Program-made: the position numbers and the translations under genes
Notes under the pieces: generated by a model
The model's input: only the letters and a program-made list of their open reading frames with translations
The model's database searches: none
Told to the model about the DNA's origin: nothing
Assembly: GCA_024672315.1 (NCBI GenBank)
Contig: GCA_024672315.1_4714.1
Direction: 5' to 3' (one strand)
Source: a phage
Length of the DNA stretch: 64,000 nucleotides
Part shown: piece after piece, positions 6,279-42,217 of the stretch
Position numbering within the stretch: position 1 is the stretch's first letter
How the letters are laid out: each line of letters opens with the position of its first letter

Positions 6279-6735
6279 GAATTCCTTCTAGCTCGAGGTT
6301 GTTCTCGCCGGTCTTCGGTAATAACCCACTGGCCGTTAACATCTGTGTCATCGAGTAGTCAAAGCACGGAAATATCAGGTTAACGGTTTCCTGGATCGCG
6401 TCAACATAACTATAAATGGCTTCATAATACTCACCATCATGATCTACGCTAACCAGTTCCTGACACAGTTCTTCGCTTATCATTTCATATACCGGTGGAT
6501 ACCACGATTGAAATGGTCGCTGCATACGTAACGACCAATACTCGTACGTCGTATACTGAAGCACGTCATATGCCGATACGTTAATGCGGTCGAAGAAAGT
6601 ATACTTGTCCATATGCTGATACAACATCGCCAGCACGGTTTCCAAGCACACCGATATCCGCACGCCGTCATCTTTCCCGTTAAGAAAATTAGGTTTCTGC
6701 CGATAACGCACAAATGCCGACGGCTTCGATTGCAT
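6241..6735 (-). CDS. Hypothetical protein (165 aa, start MQSKPSAFV)
   Basis: ATG at 6735 overlaps the upstream stop in a TAATG arrangement (translational coupling); the track start at 6816 would overlap the upstream gene. Confidence 0.55.
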   Translation of the reverse strand: MQSKPSAFVRYRQKPNFLNGKDDGVRISVCLETVLAMLYQHMDKYTFFDRINVSAYDVLQYTTYEYWSLRMQRPFQSWYPPVYEMISEELCQELVSVDHDGEYYEAIYSYVDAIQETVNLIFPCFDYSMTQMLTASGLLPKTGENNLELEGIHGYVAFFNIECG

Positions 6736-7418
6736 TATTCCACCACCAACCATAACGTCATACTCGTATCTAACGTAAAATTGAAATGCCACCAATCTTC
6801 TACACGTGGAATCCACGTACGAAGGATTTGGTTAACTTCGCTTCGCATCACCGATAAACGACAACGAAAATCGAACTTCTCATCATGGCCGTAGTCTTCA
6901 TGCATGAAAACTTCATCCAGAACGAACTCAAGTTGCATGTCGACATCACGGCCAGAGATATTCCGTTTGTACAAATACAACTCAATCGTGTCGTAAAGCA
7001 ACGTATGAATATCATAATTTCCGTTCGGTGAGAAATAAGGTAACCGCTCATCGAGCATCGAAAACAGATATTCGCTGTAGTTTAATAACGGGATGATGTA
7101 CCGACGCCCTGTCTGTGGTGTGCGAATATGTATCGAAACCTGACTTGGGCGCGGAATAACCGACGGCTTAGAATCGTCTCTCTGAAATTGCTCTAAAGAT
7201 CGCAACAAAGGTGGCCGCATTGTAACTCTCCAACGCCCAATTGTAAGGCCCTTCCAACATGTGTTCCCATACGTGAATAAACTCACTACCGAAGACAGGC
7301 TCCAGCGCCATGGTGAGATTCGTAAGTTCTGACGCGGCCGCATGGTAAGCATCAACATGTCTTTCCATTGACGGATCGTCTTCATTGAAAATACGTTCTG
7401 TATCGCCAGCCCGCTCAA
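6735..7418 (-). CDS. Hypothetical protein; only the C-terminal ~108 codons (from ATG near 7058) look protein-like
   Basis: N-terminal 120 codons of this frame are W/R-rich and low-complexity, while the overlapping frame 7168-7797 looks coding across the same region; see frameshift finding. Confidence 0.35.
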   Translation of the reverse strand: MSGLAIQNVFSMKTIRQWKDMLMLTMRPRQNLRISPWRWSLSSVVSLFTYGNTCWKGLTIGRWRVTMRPPLLRSLEQFQRDDSKPSVIPRPSQVSIHIRTPQTGRRYIIPLLNYSEYLFSMLDERLPYFSPNGNYDIHTLLYDTIELYLYKRNISGRDVDMQLEFVLDEVFMHEDYGHDEKFDFRCRLSVMRSEVNQILRTWIPRVEDWWHFNFTLDTSMTLWLVVE

Positions 7419-10983: not shown

Positions 10984-11510
10984 TTAACGATAGCTTCCTC
11001 CCTCGGTGTTTTCGAGGGAGGTATTTGCCGTTTAAACACTTTCAGCACGTTCGTAAATTCAGCAGCAATAATACAGGCCGAGGTTGATAGCTTATTGCTG
11101 AAAATGAGATCGTCCGGTAAACAATCGAACTGAATACCGTATTGCGTCTTTGTCTCATCAACGATCAATGACGGTGTCGATCTTGTCTTCGCAATGTCGG
11201 TGATATACAAACGTAAAAATAATTCACCGTCTTCGCTATCCATAAAACGATAGGCGTTACCAGAAAACGCAACACATGGTGTAACGATAAATTGAACACG
11301 ATCGTCGATCGGATGGATATTTAACCAACGTTCGATATCATTACTACTCACATTTTGCATATTTACTACGGTAAAAGCAAATAGCGTATCGTGATGCTTG
11401 GAATAATGCAGCACATACGCCGCACCTTTCTTTTTGTGAATCCCTTCAATGTATTCTATTGTCGTATAGCCGGATTTATATAGCTTTACTTGCGGTTTCT
11501 CACTCATCAT
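10974..11510 (-). CDS. Hypothetical protein (start re-assigned to MMSEKPQV)
   Basis: ATGATGA overlap with the upstream stop at 11507-11509; the track start at 11591 would overlap the upstream gene by 85 nt. Confidence 0.5.
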   Translation of the reverse strand: MMSEKPQVKLYKSGYTTIEYIEGIHKKKGAAYVLHYSKHHDTLFAFTVVNMQNVSSNDIERWLNIHPIDDRVQFIVTPCVAFSGNAYRFMDSEDGELFLRLYITDIAKTRSTPSLIVDETKTQYGIQFDCLPDDLIFSNKLSTSACIIAAEFTNVLKVFKRQIPPSKTPREEAIVNQK

Positions 11511-12206: not shown

Positions 12207-13031
12207 TTAACTATCGCTTTCTGATGTATCGACGTAGTTGAAAATACGATCCCGTAAACACTCGTAACGAGGCAACGCGCTAAGAATGATCATCTTCAAC
12301 TGCATCGCGATCGATACGCGTTCTTCATCCGATGCATCATCTCCCCATTTACCCGGCTTAACCTGAATAGGTTCATGCGGATCCTGCGGGAATATAAAAC
12401 TTAACAACAGATAATCCGTACGGAACTCCCACACTTCTCGACCGTCGTTATCGGTTTCTTTACGTAACGTGAAGAGTTGACGTTCGGTGGTTGGATCCAG
12501 CATCAGCGGTCGACCACGAACAATCTCCAGTTTACGTGGGCTGACGAACGTCGTACGTTCGGGAAGGTATTTTTCAACATCATCCGTATCCAACAAGAAC
12601 AAAATGATGTCGTCGAAATACTTCGGTGCGTACGTGTGTATCGGTTCACCGTCGCTATACGAAGAGATCTCTTGGAGTATTGGTGTCTTACACGAAAAGT
12701 TCTGGCATGAACCACGGGTGATCGGTAAGGTGGTCCATTGATGTTCTGTAGACAATTCAACAGGCACCAACGGATAGTCATCAATGAATACCACACACGT
12801 TGTGCTAATGGGTATTCTTCCGTCATTACCCGGTTCAAAAACCAAACGTATCTTACCAGTAATCAGCGCCATCTCATCTGGCATTAAATGGCTTGCTGAC
12901 CGGGCAAGTCTGAAACCGCTCGCCTGTTTATAAGGTTCGGGTTTATAGCCACGGACAATAAGAGAGACATCCGCAAGTTCAACGCTCACGAATGCATCTT
13001 TGGTGTCTTCATTGTTCGTCGTTAACGTCAT
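12207..13031 (-). CDS. Hypothetical protein (274 aa)
   Basis: ORF in minus-strand operon. Confidence 0.6.
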   Translation of the reverse strand: MTLTTNNEDTKDAFVSVELADVSLIVRGYKPEPYKQASGFRLARSASHLMPDEMALITGKIRLVFEPGNDGRIPISTTCVVFIDDYPLVPVELSTEHQWTTLPITRGSCQNFSCKTPILQEISSYSDGEPIHTYAPKYFDDIILFLLDTDDVEKYLPERTTFVSPRKLEIVRGRPLMLDPTTERQLFTLRKETDNDGREVWEFRTDYLLLSFIFPQDPHEPIQVKPGKWGDDASDEERVSIAMQLKMIILSALPRYECLRDRIFNYVDTSESDS

Positions 13032-14046
13032 TGTTCATTTTCTCCATTGCAACGAATCGTTCAAGCTCGCGTAATAAACGCTCTTTTAACGCAGGATCAA
13101 CTTCCGGAGCATGTTTATCACGATACCATTCGGTCCCGTTGTATTGCAGGCTAACATGCCACGTTCCTAACGGGCTTTCCTCTGCAGCAGCGATGAAATT
13201 CTTAACGCCGGTTTTGGTAGGATACTCCATGATAGGAACAGCCTGCTTCAGATCCATTACGGTAAGATCCTGGAAGTTATAATCCAGAAGCGTTAACGCA
13301 CGTTTGTCGCGTAACAGTAACCCGCAATCCAAGATGGTGAAATCAATACCCCAGAAACGTAACTTACCTCCAACCCCAACAGGAGTGTGACCACGATAAA
13401 CCGCGAGATAAATCTCACCTTTATCGGTTTCTTTGTTGTATCCAGCAATAAAAGCGGCTGTGATTAATGGTTGGTGTCCTTTCGCTAAGAAGACAGGGTG
13501 GTTATGATACAACCAGTCACTACGAATCAGATCGGTAACCTGACCTAAACGTGCTGTTGGTACCATCACCGATCCCAGAGTCTCATCAACAGGAACCTGG
13601 TAATATTCAAACAGAACACCATCGATTTCTTCGGTAGCGTAAGGCGTACGTGTAGGATCGTTAAGGAGTTTACGGAGTTTTGTGTCGATTTCGTTAACAC
13701 GGCTACCCTGCTCTTTCTCACGACTGCCGATAACAAAAGCAACAAGATTGCGCACGCTAACAAAAACATCATCTTTCTCAGTGTCGCTGAGATCAGCTTC
13801 ATCCGGCATTGTTGTCCAATGTAACGGACCTTCAACAACCTTAAGCCATTTATCTTCACGTTCAGGATAAACAAAAGGCTTATGCACAGGAACACTGGTG
13901 TGCTGAACTCGCAATAACAGGCTACATAACGGCGGTAATGTTTTCTCTAGAGGAGGAACAATACCTGAGGTAACGGAAATAACGTAACGATTAAGAACAA
14001 GAGAAGCTGAATAAGTGATGTTATCTAATCCTGGTAATTGATCCAT
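13009..14046 (-). CDS. Hypothetical protein (345 aa)
   Basis: ORF; a 305-nt AT-rich intergenic region lies upstream. Confidence 0.6.
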   Translation of the reverse strand: MDQLPGLDNITYSASLVLNRYVISVTSGIVPPLEKTLPPLCSLLLRVQHTSVPVHKPFVYPEREDKWLKVVEGPLHWTTMPDEADLSDTEKDDVFVSVRNLVAFVIGSREKEQGSRVNEIDTKLRKLLNDPTRTPYATEEIDGVLFEYYQVPVDETLGSVMVPTARLGQVTDLIRSDWLYHNHPVFLAKGHQPLITAAFIAGYNKETDKGEIYLAVYRGHTPVGVGGKLRFWGIDFTILDCGLLLRDKRALTLLDYNFQDLTVMDLKQAVPIMEYPTKTGVKNFIAAAEESPLGTWHVSLQYNGTEWYRDKHAPEVDPALKERLLRELERFVAMEKMNNDVNDEQ

Positions 14047-14301
14047 GATAGAAATCCTTAGTATATTTGATATGTTGTTTAATTGACATATTAAGTTTAA
14101 AAGAGGTTATGTTTTACGTATTGTTAATAACGTATTCTTATCTCTATTAAGTTATGTTCTATCTAAAGATAGTAAACAGATATAATGCTCCCCACCTCCC
14201 CATTCTCCCAAGTAATACTGGCCTACCGGCCCTCTCCTTTTTAAGGGAGAGAGTAAGCATTCAGTATTGCTCAAATGAATAAGCAAAACAGTATAAACTT
14301 A

Positions 14302-14325
14302 CCGTCTCGAGATAACTCGAGACGG
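14302..14325 (-). terminator. Perfect 10-bp hairpin CCGTCTCGAG-ataa-CTCGAGACGG (candidate intrinsic terminator)
   Basis: Located 27 nt downstream of the stop of gene 14352-14705 on the minus strand, followed by a moderately U-rich tract. Confidence 0.5.
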
Positions 14326-14351
14326 CGTAGTATCTGTTTATCTCTTTTATG

Positions 14352-14705
14352 TTAACAGCCTATTTCTGCATGAACCTTTAACGATTCGAATACATCTTCC
14401 TTCTTTATCATCGTCTTGTATAAACGTGATTGAGCAATGATCTTTATCCATTGTTGCGGATCGCGTAAATTCACATTTTCAAAACGGGGTGGGGTATTAT
14501 CTCCGTCGAGTCGGATATACCCTAAGAGCAATCCTTCATGGTGTCCTCGACGGATTTCGATATGCGGTTTGAGGAAGATGCGGTTATCTGGTGGATACCA
14601 GCTTACGGTGTAATAATGGTTTCCTGAAACAACGAACTCATGAACGGTTTTTGTTTCATCATCAATGACCGCGTTTACGCTGGGAATCATTAATTTTTGA
14701 AGCAC
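14352..14705 (-). CDS. Hypothetical protein (117 aa)
   Basis: ORF. Confidence 0.55.
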   Translation of the reverse strand: MLQKLMIPSVNAVIDDETKTVHEFVVSGNHYYTVSWYPPDNRIFLKPHIEIRRGHHEGLLLGYIRLDGDNTPPRFENVNLRDPQQWIKIIAQSRLYKTMIKKEDVFESLKVHAEIGC

Positions 14706-35456: not shown

Positions 35457-38400
35457 TTATTTAGCGTCGTTAAAGTAAATATCAACAGCTCGTTCCGTTG
35501 CGTAGAGGAGACCAAGATTCACAGTCCCAACCACTTCCGGTGAACCGATGATACGGTTAGCGATACTGGTGCCACTGAAGATAGCATCAAGGGTGTGCCC
35601 GTCTTCGGTTTTGTTCACACCATGACCCACGGAAGAGACAACGGATTTCGCTTGTGCTGCGAAGGTACCTTTATCACCCATCCCCGCACCAAGGTCGTAA
35701 CGCATGAAAATACGGATAGCGATCTGGTTCTCGCCTAACGGATTACCGTCTATTCTCACGTTACTGTTATTGATACGCCCTGTTGTTGCCTCGCTGAGTT
35801 TCAGTTCCTTGACGCGTTTAGCTCGCGCTTTATCCGCTTCACCGACGAGCGCCGCCATGGTTTCGCTCATATCCTCAATCTGAGCGCGGTACAGTACATC
35901 GATCTGTACAACTTCACCATGAACATCAGCACGTGGGTTATACTGACTCATACGACGTAATGCTTCAACGGCTTCCTGACTCTCATCACTCAGATCAGTT
36001 GCGATCGGTTCTTCCAGTGTTGCAAGAATCGTTCGCGGTTCAACGTGGTCGCCGATTTTCACAAGACCACGAATGTTGAGATGGGCGTCAACGATAAGCG
36101 TACGGCTCTTAATCGATGGTGTTACGAGACGATCAGCAAGATTGTCGAAGATATACGAACTGTCCTCGTGAGTCTCTGGAATATCCAGAATACCGACAAG
36201 AGACAGAACACCTGCGCGCCAAACAACCTGACCCGGGTTCCACCAATCGCGTTTAAAATAAAGACGATGGAAAACCACCACATCCTGATCCTTAACGCGA
36301 TCCCCGACTTTATAATCGGTAATGAGATCATGGGGATAATACTTACCTGGTCCTTTCCCGATTATCGTACCGAGCTGGAAAACCTCTTCCCCTAACTCTG
36401 GATCGTCGTATTGTATCGTAAGCGCGGTTTTGGTGACCTTCTTCACAACACCATCGCCTTGGGCAGCTGCTGCGAAGAGCTTACCAACACGATGCGCGAT
36501 GACAGTCTCACCACCTGTACGCCACGGTTGTACATCGTAACCTTCAGCAGCAATCATGCGGTTGTGTTGGATCCCGACAAAGACCAGACGTTTTCCATCG
36601 TCGCGGTCTACAGCCGGAACAGCTAACGCTGACGTACTCATTACCGATGAAATGCCGTCTGTCTTTTCATCGAATGGTCGTGTTTCACCATATACCGACA
36701 CGATATTAGCATTAGGTGCGAGGTAAGCAGAAATACCTACGTCCCCGCTATCTTTCGTACCCTCTGACACAATACCAACATCGGACTTGTCGTATTCACG
36801 ATCGCGTGCGCGTCGAAGCGATGTCTTTGAACGACCTCCGATACCGGTCATCGTCGCTTCTTCACCCTGCTTGATATCCAACATCGGGTTGGTTTCATCA
36901 ATCACGATGGAAGCACTGTCGTCGAGAATCTGGTTCCAGACACTTACCGGACTGATTGATATTTTCTGGCGATTTCCTTGACTGCTGTTCTCATTCTGAC
37001 GAATAGCACCAACCAGGTCCTTATACACCAATTCAGCGAACTTATCGTACGTTTTAAAACGTTGGTAGTTCACATCGTTCGTGTTAGGAGCCCAATCATC
37101 CAGAAGCAGTTCAACAGCACGCAGTAACAACATGGCGAAATCGGTAGGTTCTCCCATGTTCTGTAGCAACGTACGGCTTACCGGATCAACGAAAAGACGC
37201 TCCATGAGTTCAAGTTCGCGTAAATGACGAACCTTAAGTCCAGCACCATCGACAACGTTAAAATAGATATCTCGATTGTCAAAAGCGCCGCGAGCGTAAC
37301 CGATGTAGTTACGGTATTCGTTAAACCCACCCAGCAACAACGTCGTCATGCGATCGTCTTTACTGAAGATCAAACTTTCGTCATCAAAGCTCACCGCGAA
37401 TTCATCGGGTGCTAGACCCATACGAGAACCGCGAGGTACCGTACGATAGTTCGCTTTAAGATGTTCTAATAACGGGGTAAGTCCACCCAGATAACTTAGA
37501 ACAACACCGACCGGAATACGTACACCCATGAATTCAAGATCGGCGGCTTCGATCGGCATCTTAGCCGCATTGATACCGAAGAAATCAGGGAACGTCCCTA
37601 CAGGTGTTGGTGTTTGTCCTGACTGACAGATATAGAGCTGATTGCGTTTATCGATTGCTAAGAATTCACCCAGCGTGTTACGCGCAAACGTCAGGAGCCC
37701 TTCGGCTAACTGTTCGTTGAACCGATCTTCCCCGATGAACTCCGGCAATGTCTTTGTATCGAGACGTATATCCCAATCAGCAAATTGGATTTGGGTATAG
37801 TTGCGTGCAAGCACAGCGAAGTAATACGGAACTTTGACGGCCGGATCAAAGACGTTACCGCGTTTCAACGTGGTTAAGGGTGAGGATTTATCGTAATACA
37901 TCGCCGTAAGTTGACGTGTTAGCCAACGACCGGCGTTATTAACGACGCGCTCTGAACGTTTAACAAACACCTTACCGTAGGCGGTACTCAACGCAACTTC
38001 AGATGACGATACCTTTCTAATAGGTTTATCAACACGTTGTTTACGCATCCGGTATTTGATGCCGTTAACGACATAAATGCCATCCTTACGAACCTTCGGC
38101 AACATCACCGGGAACGTGGTCGGGACACCGCCTACGGGAGCCAGTTTAATCGTGATGACTTGATAATCCCCCATCACGTCAACAACATCTTCGACTTTAT
38201 ATCCCGTAACAGGGTAACCCGCCTGCTGTACCGCAACAACAGCGGCTGCGATGTCCTTTTGCATTACGTGTTCAACGTAATGTTTATCCCACACCGCAAG
38301 CGTCGATTTACACAGGCTCTTATCGACGATAACATCCGCTTCCGGCATAACCTTTGCAGGAGCTAATTTCGCGGCTTTTGGTTTAACTTCAACATACTCG

Positions 38401-39803
38401 GCAAGTGTTAATCCAGAACCGTCGGGTGCTTCGATTTCATGGATGGCGTCAGCATTACGCATCGCTGCTTTATATTGGACACCGCTTAACTGACCTGCAT
38501 CGGCCAGATCGCTCGCGCGCACCAACACCGCATCCGATAACGACTGAATATACTCACCGTGTGTTTTTGGTAACGTTGTCGCGTCAAAGACATCAACCTT
38601 TTCTTCTTCGGTATCGTCGGTAACGACTTCGAAGAGATCGTCGGTAATGTCCTGATCTTCATCAGGTTGGAAATCCGGTTGTACTTCTACCCCAGGTACT
38701 TCACGGACATCTTCGAACGAGCGTTCTACAATGGCGTTCCACGCATCAGCGTCATCGTCTTCATCCGACCCGCCGACCAACTCAGCTTCTAACTCATCGG
38801 GATCAAGAACGGTAGCCAGATCCTCACCGTTAGGAAGCACGACGTCGCGATCATCGTACTCCGCATCCGGGCTGTCCGCAAGAATATCTCGCTCCTGACG
38901 AAGAACCTGTTCCTCTTCTTGTTTCTGTTCTTCTTCATTCGCGCTCTGCGACCACAGACGTGTTACCGCCATCATCCAACGACGTTGGAAGGTTTCAAGT
39001 GTCGTTTTATCGAGTTCTTCCCCTTCCTTTACAAGTCCGGTACGCCATTCTTCCAGCAGGCCGAGATTCAGCGTAAAGAAGTACACGCCGTCTGTGAATA
39101 CAACGTTAAGCTTGTCCAGCGTGGCTCTGTCTAACGAAGCCATCGTGCTGTTCTCACGATCGGTTCCCAGCCAGCGGAAGAAGTCAAAGAACGACAGCTC
39201 CTCCGGTGTGGCGAAATTCATGAGGTTGTTACGGGTCGGTGCCTGTTGCGTGGTACGCATCAACGAAATCTTCGGCAATGTTGACGGTATACGGAACAAC
39301 AAAAAGTGTTGGCGATCGCTTTGCTGTGCGATTTCGTTGGCTTTCGACCAAATTGTTTTACGTACATTGAACCATTCATCATACCAACGGGTGAGCGTTG
39401 GACGATAAATGTACATGTGGTTAAGATGCGCGTAGTTAGCAACGATCTGAGCGTTGATGTTTTTCTCCACCGTGCTTAGATCGGTAACCAAACGAAAACG
39501 ACGATGTGATGCACGATAATCCAATTTCGCTCGTGGGAGTTGGAATCGTTGATCGCGTCGAGGTGCACCCTGTTTGGTTGCGAGATCATCAGCAAACGAA
39601 ATCCATAGTTGAGCATTTTCTTTACTCAGCATGTATTCGTTTTCTGGAGGACCTATCAATGAAGGATCCGTTGCGATGTAATGATAGACAGCATAACGCG
39701 GCAGCTGCAATAGCTGCACTAAACGTAATCTTGGTGATAGTAACTCTTGGTAGCGTCTGACACCAAACTGTCGGTAGTAATCAAGGTATTTAAGTTTTGC
39801 CAT
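35457..39803 (-). CDS. Multisubunit RNA polymerase beta-like subunit (N-terminal part of beta; 1448 aa)
   Basis: TGIGGRS..RRARDREYD..VGIVSEGTKDSGDVGISAYLAPNA aligns with E. coli RpoB [40 protein letters not shown]; downstream AVPAV and GDKG segments align with beta NMQRQAVP and GDKxAGRHGNKG. No GEME region, so the beta C-terminal part is presumably encoded elsewhere. ATG at 39803 preceded by GGAG and an in-frame stop 2 codons upstream. Confidence 0.8.
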   Translation of the reverse strand: MAKLKYLDYYRQFGVRRYQELLSPRLRLVQLLQLPRYAVYHYIATDPSLIGPPENEYMLSKENAQLWISFADDLATKQGAPRRDQRFQLPRAKLDYRASHRRFRLVTDLSTVEKNINAQIVANYAHLNHMYIYRPTLTRWYDEWFNVRKTIWSKANEIAQQSDRQHFLLFRIPSTLPKISLMRTTQQAPTRNNLMNFATPEELSFFDFFRWLGTDRENSTMASLDRATLDKLNVVFTDGVYFFTLNLGLLEEWRTGLVKEGEELDKTTLETFQRRWMMAVTRLWSQSANEEEQKQEEEQVLRQERDILADSPDAEYDDRDVVLPNGEDLATVLDPDELEAELVGGSDEDDDADAWNAIVERSFEDVREVPGVEVQPDFQPDEDQDITDDLFEVVTDDTEEEKVDVFDATTLPKTHGEYIQSLSDAVLVRASDLADAGQLSGVQYKAAMRNADAIHEIEAPDGSGLTLAEYVEVKPKAAKLAPAKVMPEADVIVDKSLCKSTLAVWDKHYVEHVMQKDIAAAVVAVQQAGYPVTGYKVEDVVDVMGDYQVITIKLAPVGGVPTTFPVMLPKVRKDGIYVVNGIKYRMRKQRVDKPIRKVSSSEVALSTAYGKVFVKRSERVVNNAGRWLTRQLTAMYYDKSSPLTTLKRGNVFDPAVKVPYYFAVLARNYTQIQFADWDIRLDTKTLPEFIGEDRFNEQLAEGLLTFARNTLGEFLAIDKRNQLYICQSGQTPTPVGTFPDFFGINAAKMPIEAADLEFMGVRIPVGVVLSYLGGLTPLLEHLKANYRTVPRGSRMGLAPDEFAVSFDDESLIFSKDDRMTTLLLGGFNEYRNYIGYARGAFDNRDIYFNVVDGAGLKVRHLRELELMERLFVDPVSRTLLQNMGEPTDFAMLLLRAVELLLDDWAPNTNDVNYQRFKTYDKFAELVYKDLVGAIRQNENSSQGNRQKISISPVSVWNQILDDSASIVIDETNPMLDIKQGEEATMTGIGGRSKTSLRRARDREYDKSDVGIVSEGTKDSGDVGISAYLAPNANIVSVYGETRPFDEKTDGISSVMSTSALAVPAVDRDDGKRLVFVGIQHNRMIAAEGYDVQPWRTGGETVIAHRVGKLFAAAAQGDGVVKKVTKTALTIQYDDPELGEEVFQLGTIIGKGPGKYYPHDLITDYKVGDRVKDQDVVVFHRLYFKRDWWNPGQVVWRAGVLSLVGILDIPETHEDSSYIFDNLADRLVTPSIKSRTLIVDAHLNIRGLVKIGDHVEPRTILATLEEPIATDLSDESQEAVEALRRMSQYNPRADVHGEVVQIDVLYRAQIEDMSETMAALVGEADKARAKRVKELKLSEATTGRINNSNVRIDGNPLGENQIAIRIFMRYDLGAGMGDKGTFAAQAKSVVSSVGHGVNKTEDGHTLDAIFSGTSIANRIIGSPEVVGTVNLGLLYATERAVDIYFNDAK

Positions 39804-39806
39804 GGG

Positions 39807-39986
39807 TTAGGCTCCACGAGGTCCCGTTAAGTTGCGTAATAGGAACGCAACCGTATCGTAACCAATATCGATGTTGAATTTATTTTTACCACTTACCCAG
39901 AAAGCACGCTTCTTGTGCGAGTTGGTAATTTCGTCAATGGCTTCCATGGAATAAAGAACGTTAACCGAGACCGTATCGCCGTCGAA
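39807..39986 (-). CDS. RNA polymerase beta-prime-like subunit, exon 2 (59 codons: FDGDTVSVNVLYSMEAIDEI...)
   Basis: Translation aligns with E. coli RpoC [21 protein letters not shown] immediately after the catalytic aspartates; the exon stop is 3 nt before the beta start codon. Splice boundary inferred, plus or minus a few nt. Confidence 0.6.
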   Translation of the reverse strand, partial: FDGDTVSVNVLYSMEAIDEITNSHKKRAFWVSGKNKFNIDIGYDTVAFLLRNLTGPRGA

Positions 39987-40505
39987 CCTTGTCTTCGCCT
40001 CAGGTCGCTACGCTGAGACCGCCTGCGTGGATACGTACATCACAGGCTGCTTGCACTTTCATGCAAGAGGAGACTATATCAAACCGTCAGCTTCACCTGC
40101 TACGGTAACCTACACTTCGAAGACGCTTGTCCTCTACAGGGTGGTAAATCCCTTAGTCGTTGAACCTGCGTTGTTTCACATTCTTGTTTGCAAGAATGCC
40201 GTATTGCTACGCAACAACCAGGCTGCTGATTGCCCATTATCACGCACCTTAGCACCGCTTACGCGGCTTTTCTTTCAGCCTAAGCCTCCGTGGGAGGTAG
40301 TGCATCTCAACTGTTGTTTCCGCCTTTCGGCACCTCATGGGTTGTTGAGCTTTAGGGGTTCCCAGCAATTCGTAGGTTTTTCAAGCACTCCCTTTCGGGA
40401 ATACCGGACCAATTCAGTTAGTAAACAACATTATTACCATCCCTCATTCTTAAGGGTTAATTTTTTAAAATGATAAAATTAATGTGTTTTTGGGCTAACT
40501 CGAAG
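39987..40505 (-). other. Group I self-splicing intron (about 519 nt) within the RNAP beta-prime gene
   Basis: On the minus strand in canonical order: P-like AATTGCTGGGAAC (plus 40358-40370), Q-like AATCAGCAGCC (40221-40231), R-like GTTCAACGACTAAGG (40151-40165) and S-like GATATAGTC (40072-40080); exon 1 ends in U, the intron ends in G; no long ORF on the intron coding strand. Confidence 0.75.
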
Positions 40506-41972
40506 ATCACCGCCTAAACCGGCGAGGTATGGCGCAGGAACAATAGTCGTTTCTACGAACGAAGCATTAGGTAACCAGTCGGGGTATTCCCATGCGATAA
40601 ATCGTTCATCCGTTATTGGTTCCCAGTTACTATCCAGTTCGGTTTTCGGTTTTGCAGCGACGGTTGTACGCGCGTAACAGGTTAACGGGATAACGGATTG
40701 CATACCCGATACCGGATAACGTGTTACCATCGCAGCCAGGTTATTCCAGTACTTATATCCGGCGATATAGATAAGCTCGGTGTAAGTAATGGGGTGAACA
40801 TCCGCACCAGGTTTATTCAACATCTCTGGGGGTAATTCACTCATACCACGGAATAACCGAAACGAATCGTTGTTCACATAGACGAGGCAAAGATAACGTC
40901 CATTAACCATGATAGGCTCGTTACGCACACCAGGATCGCTTAAGGTGTTCAATAAACGTTCTATTCCGTCCCATGTTGTAAAGTCATCGATGGTATCTGG
41001 GTCTAACGTGACACGTTCACGTTCCATCGTTTCGATATCGATAAGTTCAACTTCTGTAACATCACGGACAAATATTTCCTGCAAAATCCCCGTACGTAGC
41101 GCATGTTGCGTTACAGGGAGAGCAGCTTTACTCATCTGGTATAACCCTAACTGAACCGCGGTACAGGAAGGCTGGTTAGGCGACCCTAATACCTCCGTTG
41201 TGGGGTTAATTGCCGAAATAACGTTACGGGTTGAGTTCCAAACGCGACGTGAGCCGAACTTACCTTGGAAGATCCCTTTCTTACCCTGGAACATATCCAA
41301 CAGTAAAGCGTAGATATCGTTAAATGTTCTCTGTAAGCTCCAACGTTGACCGTCGTAAACGGGATCAGAATAATCTTTTAATCCATCAGGGACGGTGTTA
41401 GAAATTGCAAGGAAACGACGATACAACTCCGTGATTTCTTGCTCGCTTTCATACCCACCTTCTTTTACTTCTATTTCACGTAAGCCTGCAGGCAATACCA
41501 GTAAGTGACGGGTCATCGCTTTGAACATGTTCTCTTCGACAACTTTAATTCGTAGCTCTCGTTGAGCTGAACCCGTTGAAACGAACTTGATATCAGCGAC
41601 GTGTTGTGCAAAGAACCCGTATCCTGTTTGTCCTGTTAATGCATCAGACGCAACGAAGTCGCGTTGTTCAGGATCCCAACGAGCATACGCCTTTCCCGAC
41701 ATGATATCACCATAGAGGTGTTTTAGTCGAATGAGGCGGTCGTAAATGACGGGATGCAGGATTTCAACTTTGCATTCAATCACCGCAAATCGACGGTCTC
41801 GATCTTCACTACCTGCGCTACCAAAGATGGTGTAAGAATAGAAACCATCATCGTGGAAATTACCGGTGCTTGGGTCACGAATGCTCATGCTCGTGATCTT
41901 GGGGAGAAAACGTAACTGCTGTTTATCGAGGTGTAAAATGCTAATGTTAAACGGCTCTCTGACTTTAGCCAT
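40506..41972 (-). CDS. RNA polymerase beta-prime-like subunit N-terminal part, exon 1
   Basis: AVIECKVEILHPVIY (compare GHIELAAPVAH), LLVLPAGLREIEV..EITELYRRFLAISN (compare VLPVLPPDLRPL..DLNDLYRRVINRNN) and FQGKKGIFQGKFGSRRVWNSTRNVIS (compare [23 protein letters not shown]); ATG at 41972 preceded by AAGAGGAG. The unspliced frame runs 8 codons into the intron to a stop at 40479. Confidence 0.8.
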
Positions 41973-42217
41973 GGAGACACTCCTCTTTACCACCACCGGC
42001 TGCGGCGGTATCATCTGAACACACGAGAGACGTAATGGGTGATGGCGTCACCCATCGCTTCCTTGCCTGATGCCAGGAAGTTATTAGGTTACGTACCGGC
42101 TTGATAAAATCAAGCAGGCGATGTGTGAAGTTACGCTTCAACATTATCAATGCCGAAGGTAAGCTTCGTGCATCACGTTCCAACGTAACATGGGAACGTA
42201 TCGAACTGGAGGTATAC

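Follow-up and report, generated by a model that had tools for sequence, protein, structure and literature searches.

A group I intron without an open reading frame at the DFDGD codons of a virion RNA polymerase gene in a Goslar-like phage

That group I introns interrupt essential phage genes at active-site codons is textbook knowledge. The td, nrdB and sunY introns of phage T4 interrupt conserved catalytic-site codons of essential enzymes and carry the P7.1 and P7.2 helices, with an endonuclease open reading frame (ORF) as an optional component. In phage phiKZ, introns have been associated with gp56, gp72 and gp179 and with the RNA polymerase (RNAP) subunits gp55 and gp180 (Mesyanzhinov 2002 and Ceyssens 2014, as cited in PMC11512511 and PMC10914365). 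A 2025 preprint describes gp72 and gp179 as intron-encoded homing endonucleases within RNAP operons, both of which can be deleted. In phage PhiPA3, the gp210 intron lies in gp211/209, inserted after a conserved DD, and its HNH endonuclease acts in interference competition (Birkholz et al. 2024, Science, PMC11620839). The locus analysed here lies in a 64,000-nt stretch of phage DNA (contig GCA_024672315.1_4714.1, hereafter the window) that is ~95% identical to Escherichia phage vB_EcoM_Goslar, a nucleus-forming jumbo phage infecting E. coli. This locus is very probably one gene, not two genes plus a spacer, interrupted by a group I intron that lacks an ORF and separates the first Asp codon from the Phe codon of a DFDGD motif, which splicing would restore.

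On the minus strand of the window, ORF 40479-42014 ends ...YLAGLGGD and then reads LRVSPKTH*, eight codons into a gap, with 675 nt separating its stop from the next gene start at 39803. An earlier note on this DNA, made from the letters alone, had described this ORF end correctly and had proposed that the gap is not intergenic, holding instead a group I intron followed by the missing end of an RNAP beta-prime gene. The frame from 39986 reads FDGDTVSVNVLYSMEAIDEI...GA* and includes AFWVSGK and FNIDIGYDTVAFLLR. The gene model has three parts, with the start of exon 1 at 41972 coinciding with the start of the Goslar coding sequence (CDS):

40506..41972, minus strand: exon 1 of the virion RNAP beta-prime N-terminal subunit, 489 codons, ending ...YLAGLGG-D (GAU); from the translation, the Goslar CDS start, the alignment and contig L043

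39987..40505, minus strand: group I intron, 519 nt, ORF-less, with subgroup IA architecture; from Rfam RF00028, contig L043 and the break in homology with Goslar

39807..39986, minus strand: exon 2, FDGDTVSV...TGPRGA plus the stop codon (39807-39809); from the translation and the homologue alignment

At the level of sequence, the decisive evidence for these boundaries and for the joining of the exons is contig L043, a 237.5-kb Goslar-like viral contig (95% identical) which carries an intron-less allele. Its uninterrupted 1647-nt gene matches exon 1 (41972-40506) followed by exon 2 (39986-39807), differing by 90 substitutions but by no indel, and reads ...LGGD|FDGDTVS, joined at the very point that had been predicted. 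Similarity between the window and Goslar ends at 40505, the first intron base, and restarts inside the intron. Common to both are ...GGCGGTGAT up to the break and ...GACAAGG|TTCGACGG beyond it, and the exon flanks of the intron-containing form are GGCGGTGAT|TTCGACGGC. The final base of exon 1 is U (40506) and that of the intron is G (39987), as proposed for a junction after GAU onto UUC. Over its full length, the predicted 548-aa product aligns with four orthologues that are contiguous, D-F-D-G-D being invariant in this five-way alignment. Moreover, the wider comparison with homologues, which the earlier note had suggested as a check, found the motif contiguous in more than 200 phage records that span the junction in one piece, with exon 2 as part of the same gene. 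From three independent lines, namely the Goslar break, the orthologue alignment and L043, the intron is therefore placed at 40505-39987 (519 nt), in phase 0 after the first Asp codon.

Public records show two separate CDS at this locus and leave exon 2 unannotated, as would be expected if the gap were plain intergenic DNA encoding a structured regulatory RNA and 39807-39986 were an unrelated small ORF. However, exon 2 finds its homologue in the last 59 residues of contiguous gp180 orthologues, and the intron-less allele of L043 joins both parts; these two findings refute such an arrangement. With a Rfam match to a full-length group I intron in addition (see below), the claim that the gap is not intergenic is upheld, and the intergenic alternative retains virtually no probability.

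By synteny, homology and annotation, the interrupted gene is the orthologue of phiKZ gp180 and PhiPA3 gp212. No Pfam family was matched by the spliced protein or by the downstream 1448-aa protein, so the identity was taken from a profile search of the PDB together with synteny. A profile of the spliced protein and four orthologues matched both bacterial beta-prime subunits (E about 3e-7) and, at E 2e-16, that of AR9 RNAP (7s00_d), whose DYDGD lines up with DFDGD. The assignment drawn from these matches and this alignment is that the product is the beta-prime-like N-terminal subunit of the virion-packaged multisubunit RNAP, with DFDGD as the catalytic Asp triad; exon 2 contributes the second and third Asp. 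The sequence directly 3′ of the intron is thus beta-prime, as had been claimed, and the naming of the gene as RNAP beta-prime stands in a refined form, namely as the N-terminal subunit of the virion RNAP (phiKZ gp180 orthologue). Among four Goslar-like genomes the exons differ at 67-90 nt yet at only 0-3 aa, indicating strong purifying selection, which argues that the beta-prime gene is in use.

The covariance-model search proposed in the earlier note returned a minus-strand match to Rfam RF00028 (Intron_gpI) at 40434-40050, covering model positions 1-253 untruncated (63.6 bits, E 8.7e-14, against a gathering score of 50 bits). RF00028 was the sole Rfam family matched in the window. The four core elements are P (AATTGCTGGGAAC, 40358-40370), Q (AATCAGCAGCC, 40221-40231), R (GTTCAACGACTAAGG, 40151-40165) and S (GATATAGTC, 40072-40080), each occurring once on the minus strand, where it had been placed before, and in the canonical order P-Q-R-S. 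P, Q and R are absent elsewhere in the window, and the 9-nt S string has one additional copy on the plus strand. The intron, its helices assigned by hand and confirmed with a script, can be laid out from its 5′ to its 3′ end as follows:

40505..40508, minus strand: P1 5′ strand, exon GAU plus intron C; 5′ splice site between 40506 and 40505

40411..40504, minus strand: hypervariable P1 extension/loop, closed by AGUUAG (within 40493-40502) and CUAACU (within 40413-40423)

40407..40410, minus strand: internal guide sequence GGUC, directly 5′ of P2, kept as xGUC(C) in 7 of the 7 introns compared

40384..40405, minus strand: P2 hairpin, GGUAUUCCC-GAAA-GGGAGUGCU; from the helix check

40358..40378, minus strand: P3 5′ strand ACCUAC (40377-40372), J3/4 and P4 5′ strand UGCUGG (40367-40362); includes the P element

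40221..40231, minus strand: Q element, with the P4 3′ strand UCAGCA (40229-40224) and the start of P6; from Rfam and the helix check

40151..40165, minus strand: R element, with the end of P6 and the P7 5′ strand GACUA (40158-40154); from Rfam and the helix check

40119..40153, minus strand: P7.1 (40138-40153) and P7.2 (40119-40134) hairpins between P7 and P3′, a subgroup IA hallmark

40072..40118, minus strand: P3 3′ strand GUAGGU (40113-40108), P8 hairpin (40083-40106), J8/7 and the S element with the P7 3′ strand UAGUC (40076-40072)

39987..40067, minus strand: P9 (40050-40067), P9.1 (40021-40047), P9.2 (39997-40019), 3′ tail and terminal G (39987)

The strands of P3 (ACCUAC/GUAGGU), P4 (UGCUGG/UCAGCA) and P7 (GACUA/UAGUC) are complementary in the window. 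The P-Q and R-S pairings that had been put forward for checking hold, and the P3/P7 pseudoknot pairings are present. Across seven introns compared at this site, P3 is formed by five different complementary sequence pairs, and P4 and P7 are complementary in all. The P2, P7.1, P7.2, P8 and P9-P9.2 hairpins are likewise found in all seven, with differing peripheral sequences, as is the terminal G (omega G). These pair counts use fixed offsets from invariant anchors. A MAFFT alignment of the seven cores misregistered the guide sequence, P3′ and P8, and was not used because the differing peripheral insertions shift the registers. P7.1 and P7.2 pair as AGGG...CCCU and GAGGAC/GUCUUC, form a 37-nt insertion relative to the Rfam model and, on the predicted fold, place the window intron in subgroup IA. 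A long multi-hairpin P5 extension with GNRA loops is also present.

Two further observations concern this core. P8 differs by an indel of ~49 nt (window 40083-40106 against L044 ~11362-11402), being extended and branched in Goslar and in contig L045, another Goslar-like genome, and a simple 8-bp hairpin in the window. Exact copies of the 16-nt R element GGTTCAACGACTAAGG are present in 36 viral contigs (L007-L042) of very varied sizes, most of them otherwise unlike the window intron, which points to a putative widespread family of phage IA introns with this core sequence.

P1 joins GGUC to the exon GAU and the intron C that follows it, through G-C, A-U, a U.G wobble and C-G. This internal guide sequence is located ~95 nt inside the intron, away from its 5′ end. 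The scheme G-C/A-U/U.G is found in 7/7 introns at the D|FDGD site, with the +1 pair switching between C-G, A-U and U-A; in L045 it is A-U rather than C-G, and an exon G at -4 adds one pair. The codon at -1 is GAU in 8/8 intron-containing alleles and GAC in three of the five intron-less ones, the former being always GAU because the U.G pair requires it. The segments making up the P1 loop are unrelated to one another: the window has 94 nt, which fold back on themselves as a long AU-rich stem, L045 has 32 nt, and Goslar has 1.57 kb that include an HNH/NUMOD1 ORF. The window segment closes with AGUUAG/CUAACU and that of L045 with CCUUGAAAAA/UUUUUCAAGG; in Goslar the stem AGGAAAG(G)CUA/UAGCUUUUCU encloses the ORF. 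Each stem adjoins the same guide sequence directly 5′ of P2. Another model of P1 had intron nt 8-11 (GUUA) pair with exon UGAU, so that a 4-bp hairpin placed the splice site at its loop. It was dropped because it is not conserved in Goslar (GCUA) or L045 and because AGUUAG pairs better with CUAACU.

The same insertion point is used in other phages. In a tblastn search with a junction query, several phage matches stop at residue 75 or start at residue 76, which is the D|FDGD boundary. OMKO1, Xanthomonas phage RTH11, Vibrio phage MS31 and Vibrio phage 2 TSL-2019 each have a Rfam group I match of 52-88 bits at the site, with exon 1 ending ...G(A/G)D, exon 2 starting (F/Y)DGD and the intron between them. 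The ORFs in the MS31 and TSL-2019 introns encode HNH_3 proteins, like Goslar gp206. In phiKZ (NC_004629), beyond the end of the annotated gp180 (...LAPLGAD*), come gp179 (HNH), a group I core scoring 92.2 bits and an unannotated exon 2, FDGDTVSF.... The OMKO1 core matches that of phiKZ, and at least 12 Phikzvirus records have a core at the locus. Within this group the intron bears the HNH gene in phiKZ and is ORF-less in OMKO1 and fMGyn-Pae01. In RTH11 (L047 4321-5622) a 433-aa ORF with no Pfam match lies directly past exon 2, between two polymerase genes, and may be a free-standing endonuclease or another mobile-element gene.

The window copy would splice itself out of the late transcript in a reaction started by guanosine. 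P1 of the pre-mRNA would form between the guide GGUC (40410-40407) and the exon GAU together with the first intron base, C, which puts the splice-site U into the U.G wobble. Exogenous guanosine held in P7 would attack after U40506, the terminal G (39987) would then enter the G site, and the exons would be ligated as ...GGU GAU|UUC GAC..., giving ...GGDFDGD.... The spliced product would be a protein of 548 aa with the three Mg-binding aspartates; unspliced RNA would give a 497-aa product that stops eight codons into the intron and lacks the two aspartates of exon 2. In nucleus-forming phages, transcription is physically separated from translation. Under this separation the intron would have to reach its fold and splice with no ribosomes to clear the exon ahead of it; in T4, by contrast, splicing is reportedly coupled to translation (Sandegren and Sjoberg 2007). 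Coupling of the T4 type cannot apply here if the transcripts are made inside the phage nucleus.

Several points weigh against this account. P1 is short, with 3 exon bp and 1 intron bp. P10 is weak in the window copy, where UUC/GAA is the one pairing available and sits 2 nt out of the canonical register; the introns of the other lineages form the canonical UU/AA of 2 bp. The window copy is without ~49 nt of distal P8 relative to Goslar and L045, a loss that is probably harmless. Catalytic activity and in vivo consequences are predicted for the window copy from its sequence, and an ONT-cappable-seq long-read study of phiKZ found no spliced reads under its conditions, either at the orthologous intron or at the other phiKZ intron loci named above (PMC10914365). 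Together with the loss of the endonuclease ORF and of part of P8, these last points are also what a splicing-dead relic would present, the gene then being a pseudogene in a possibly defective metagenome-derived genome, or the polymerase working from two polypeptides. We consider this very improbable. Both exons are intact and in frame, with nearly no amino acid changes despite 5% nucleotide divergence, and every core helix and junction sequence is preserved across the full Rfam model. The same intron core is present in Goslar, which has been cultured and is viable. At the 5′ end of exon 2 there is neither a start codon nor a ribosome-binding site, and eight codons further upstream a stop closes the frame, so a separate polypeptide with FDGD could not be made from exon 2. 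Moreover, we know of no precedent for a polymerase split between the first and second catalytic Asp. A single gene restored by splicing is therefore retained as the preferred reading. An extension of it, in which splicing efficiency would be rate-limiting and condition-dependent, gating the catalytic subunit of the virion polymerase, and in which the ORF-less copy would also confer immunity to the HNH enzyme of co-infecting Goslar-type phages, is speculative and seems to us unlikely. Under this extension, rare or late splicing would fit the phiKZ long-read data.

The introns of Goslar, MS31, TSL-2019 and phiKZ contain a homing endonuclease ORF and the window intron does not, as the earlier note had observed: its ORFs (148 aa antisense, 51 aa sense) gave no PHROG matches, and tblastn of Goslar gp206 against the whole window gave nothing at E<=10. 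The 148-aa antisense ORF, with a GTG start, runs through the intron core (window 40027-40473, plus strand) and is most likely spurious. A candidate endonuclease remnant in the 94-nt 5′ segment, the mini-ORF ATGTTGTTTACTAACTGA resembling the Goslar start ATGTTTAAATGG, was rejected, its local alignment score of 33 being equalled by 97 of 500 shuffles. With no endonuclease ORF in the intron or the window, the intron is unable to home alone; its movement would need an endonuclease in trans, which could be the HNH enzyme of the Goslar copy. OMKO1 differs in this respect. Its ORF-less intron (L046 3020-3125 against phiKZ L050 2938-3030) retains the phiKZ pre-ORF hairpin and the first nine gp179 codons (ATGTTAAATAAATCTATTGAAAATCTTTGA), direct evidence that this ORF-less form arose through deletion of the endonuclease gene, whereas no remnant is detectable in the window copy.

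The four ~95%-identical Goslar-like genomes comprise an intron with HNH gene (Goslar), ORF-less introns with different P1 loops (the window and L045) and an empty site (L043). Between the window and L043, 9/30 nt around the insertion site differ against 1.6 expected (p 1.6e-5), all of them synonymous, a cluster that fits co-conversion or target-site escape. Synonymous changes were also seen to cluster within 15 nt of the site in every pairwise comparison of window 40491-40520 plus 39972-39986 with L043, L044 and L045. In L045 the 5′ exon flank (CTTCAGGGGCTAGGAGGGGAT, with an A-to-Q change) and the P1 loop differ en bloc from the other Goslar-like alleles, which suggests possible recombination breakpoints inside the intron.

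The presence of the intron would destroy the target site of the endonuclease. The ORF-less intron might therefore be kept as protection, its occupation of the homing site giving immunity to the HNH enzyme of co-infecting Goslar-type phages while splicing still occurs. This would be an added selective rationale and not a different mechanism. The coexistence of the three states in such similar genomes and the substitution cluster, expected under target-site escape or co-conversion, both speak for it, as does the PhiPA3 case, in which an HNH endonuclease from an intron of the neighbouring gene brings about interference competition (Birkholz et al. 2024, PMC11620839). However, cleavage of the site by gp206 is an assumption, the cluster could simply be a co-conversion tract, and a purely selfish homing cycle of invasion, endonuclease loss and intron loss would leave the same pattern with no benefit to the phage. 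Protection is thus a possibility that we hold only tentatively and think less probable than its absence; the reading of one gene with a spliced intron is the same in either case.

A second group I intron site was observed in the neighbouring gene:

35457..39803, minus strand: downstream gene, phiKZ gp178 orthologue (virion RNAP beta subunit), 1448 aa, starting 3 nt past the exon 2 stop; from synteny

This site reads ...DRDD|GKRL..., with its junction at 36597|36596 (window 36588-36608, minus strand). It is empty in the window and Goslar and occupied in L043 and L045, by insertions of ~1.6 kb (~12830-14443, Rfam 51.4 bits) and ~0.5 kb (~13330-13831, Rfam 54 bits), respectively. Its position after the conserved DD agrees with the described PhiPA3 gp210 intron site. 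Across these two neighbouring sites in polymerase genes, the four Goslar-like genomes display all stages of the homing cycle, and the E. coli-infecting Goslar group offers a natural series for the study of intron homing, co-conversion and endonuclease interference competition in nucleus-forming phages.

The annotation of these genes is affected throughout. The gp180 orthologues are annotated as truncated at the first catalytic Asp, with exon 2 unannotated, in phiKZ (L050 4381-4550), OMKO1 (L046 3501-3665) and Goslar (L001 ~6640-6820). The Goslar record annotates the RNA core only, with neither a joined CDS nor exon 2. RTH11, MS31 and TSL-2019 have a short 'hypothetical protein' CDS over exon 2, and a joined CDS is found in none of the records. 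The catalytic subunit is thus mis-annotated as truncated, with two of its three catalytic aspartates missing, in the window phage group, phiKZ, OMKO1, Goslar, RTH11, MS31 and TSL-2019, and the joined CDS is needed for any modelling, expression or knock-down of gp180 orthologues. As for the literature, Yakunina 2015 makes no mention of introns, two Goslar papers neither mention the intron nor give protein evidence for the beta-prime gene, and no text was found that describes the Goslar-group intron or names the site as the DFDGD motif.

No new mechanism is revealed by this locus. Given the Goslar annotation, the identical codon boundary in phiKZ around gp179 and the literature citations, its novelty was overrated in the earlier note; the kind is already known, and the window copy is a new ORF-less example of it. 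The closest relative is the intron of Goslar (NC_048170 / MK327938; Rfam 67.7 bits, annotated Intron_gpI as HOV27_gs002 / Goslar_00229), which shares the gene, insertion point, guide sequence and 3′ splice site and has a core 94-98% identical. It differs in its length of 2044 nt, in a 490-aa HNH_3 + NUMOD1 ORF (gp206) within the P1 loop and in ~49 nt more of P8, whereas the window copy is 519 nt long and ORF-less, with an unrelated 94-nt P1 loop. The phiKZ gp180/gp179 intron is alike in its orthologous gene, identical codon boundary (...GAD|FDGD...), P1 scheme GAU / GUC and IA architecture, but has different peripheral helix and P3 sequences, and the host proteins are only ~38% identical. The PhiPA3 gp210 intron is likewise a group I intron at conserved acidic residues in a virion RNAP gene of a nucleus-forming phage. 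Its gp210 is an HNH endonuclease homologous to phiKZ gp179 and provides an experimental model for such introns, but it lies in the neighbouring gene (beta subunit, gp178 orthologue). In Bacillus and Staphylococcus phages, the same subunit of the same kind of polymerase has been invaded by self-splicing introns carrying homing endonucleases; both the phage lineage and the endonuclease family are different, and the likeness is at the level of the subunit. Finally, the td, nrdB and sunY introns of T4 (subgroup IA2) differ from the window intron in residing in genes of nucleotide metabolism, and T4 intron ORFs are located in the P6 or P9 loops rather than in P1.

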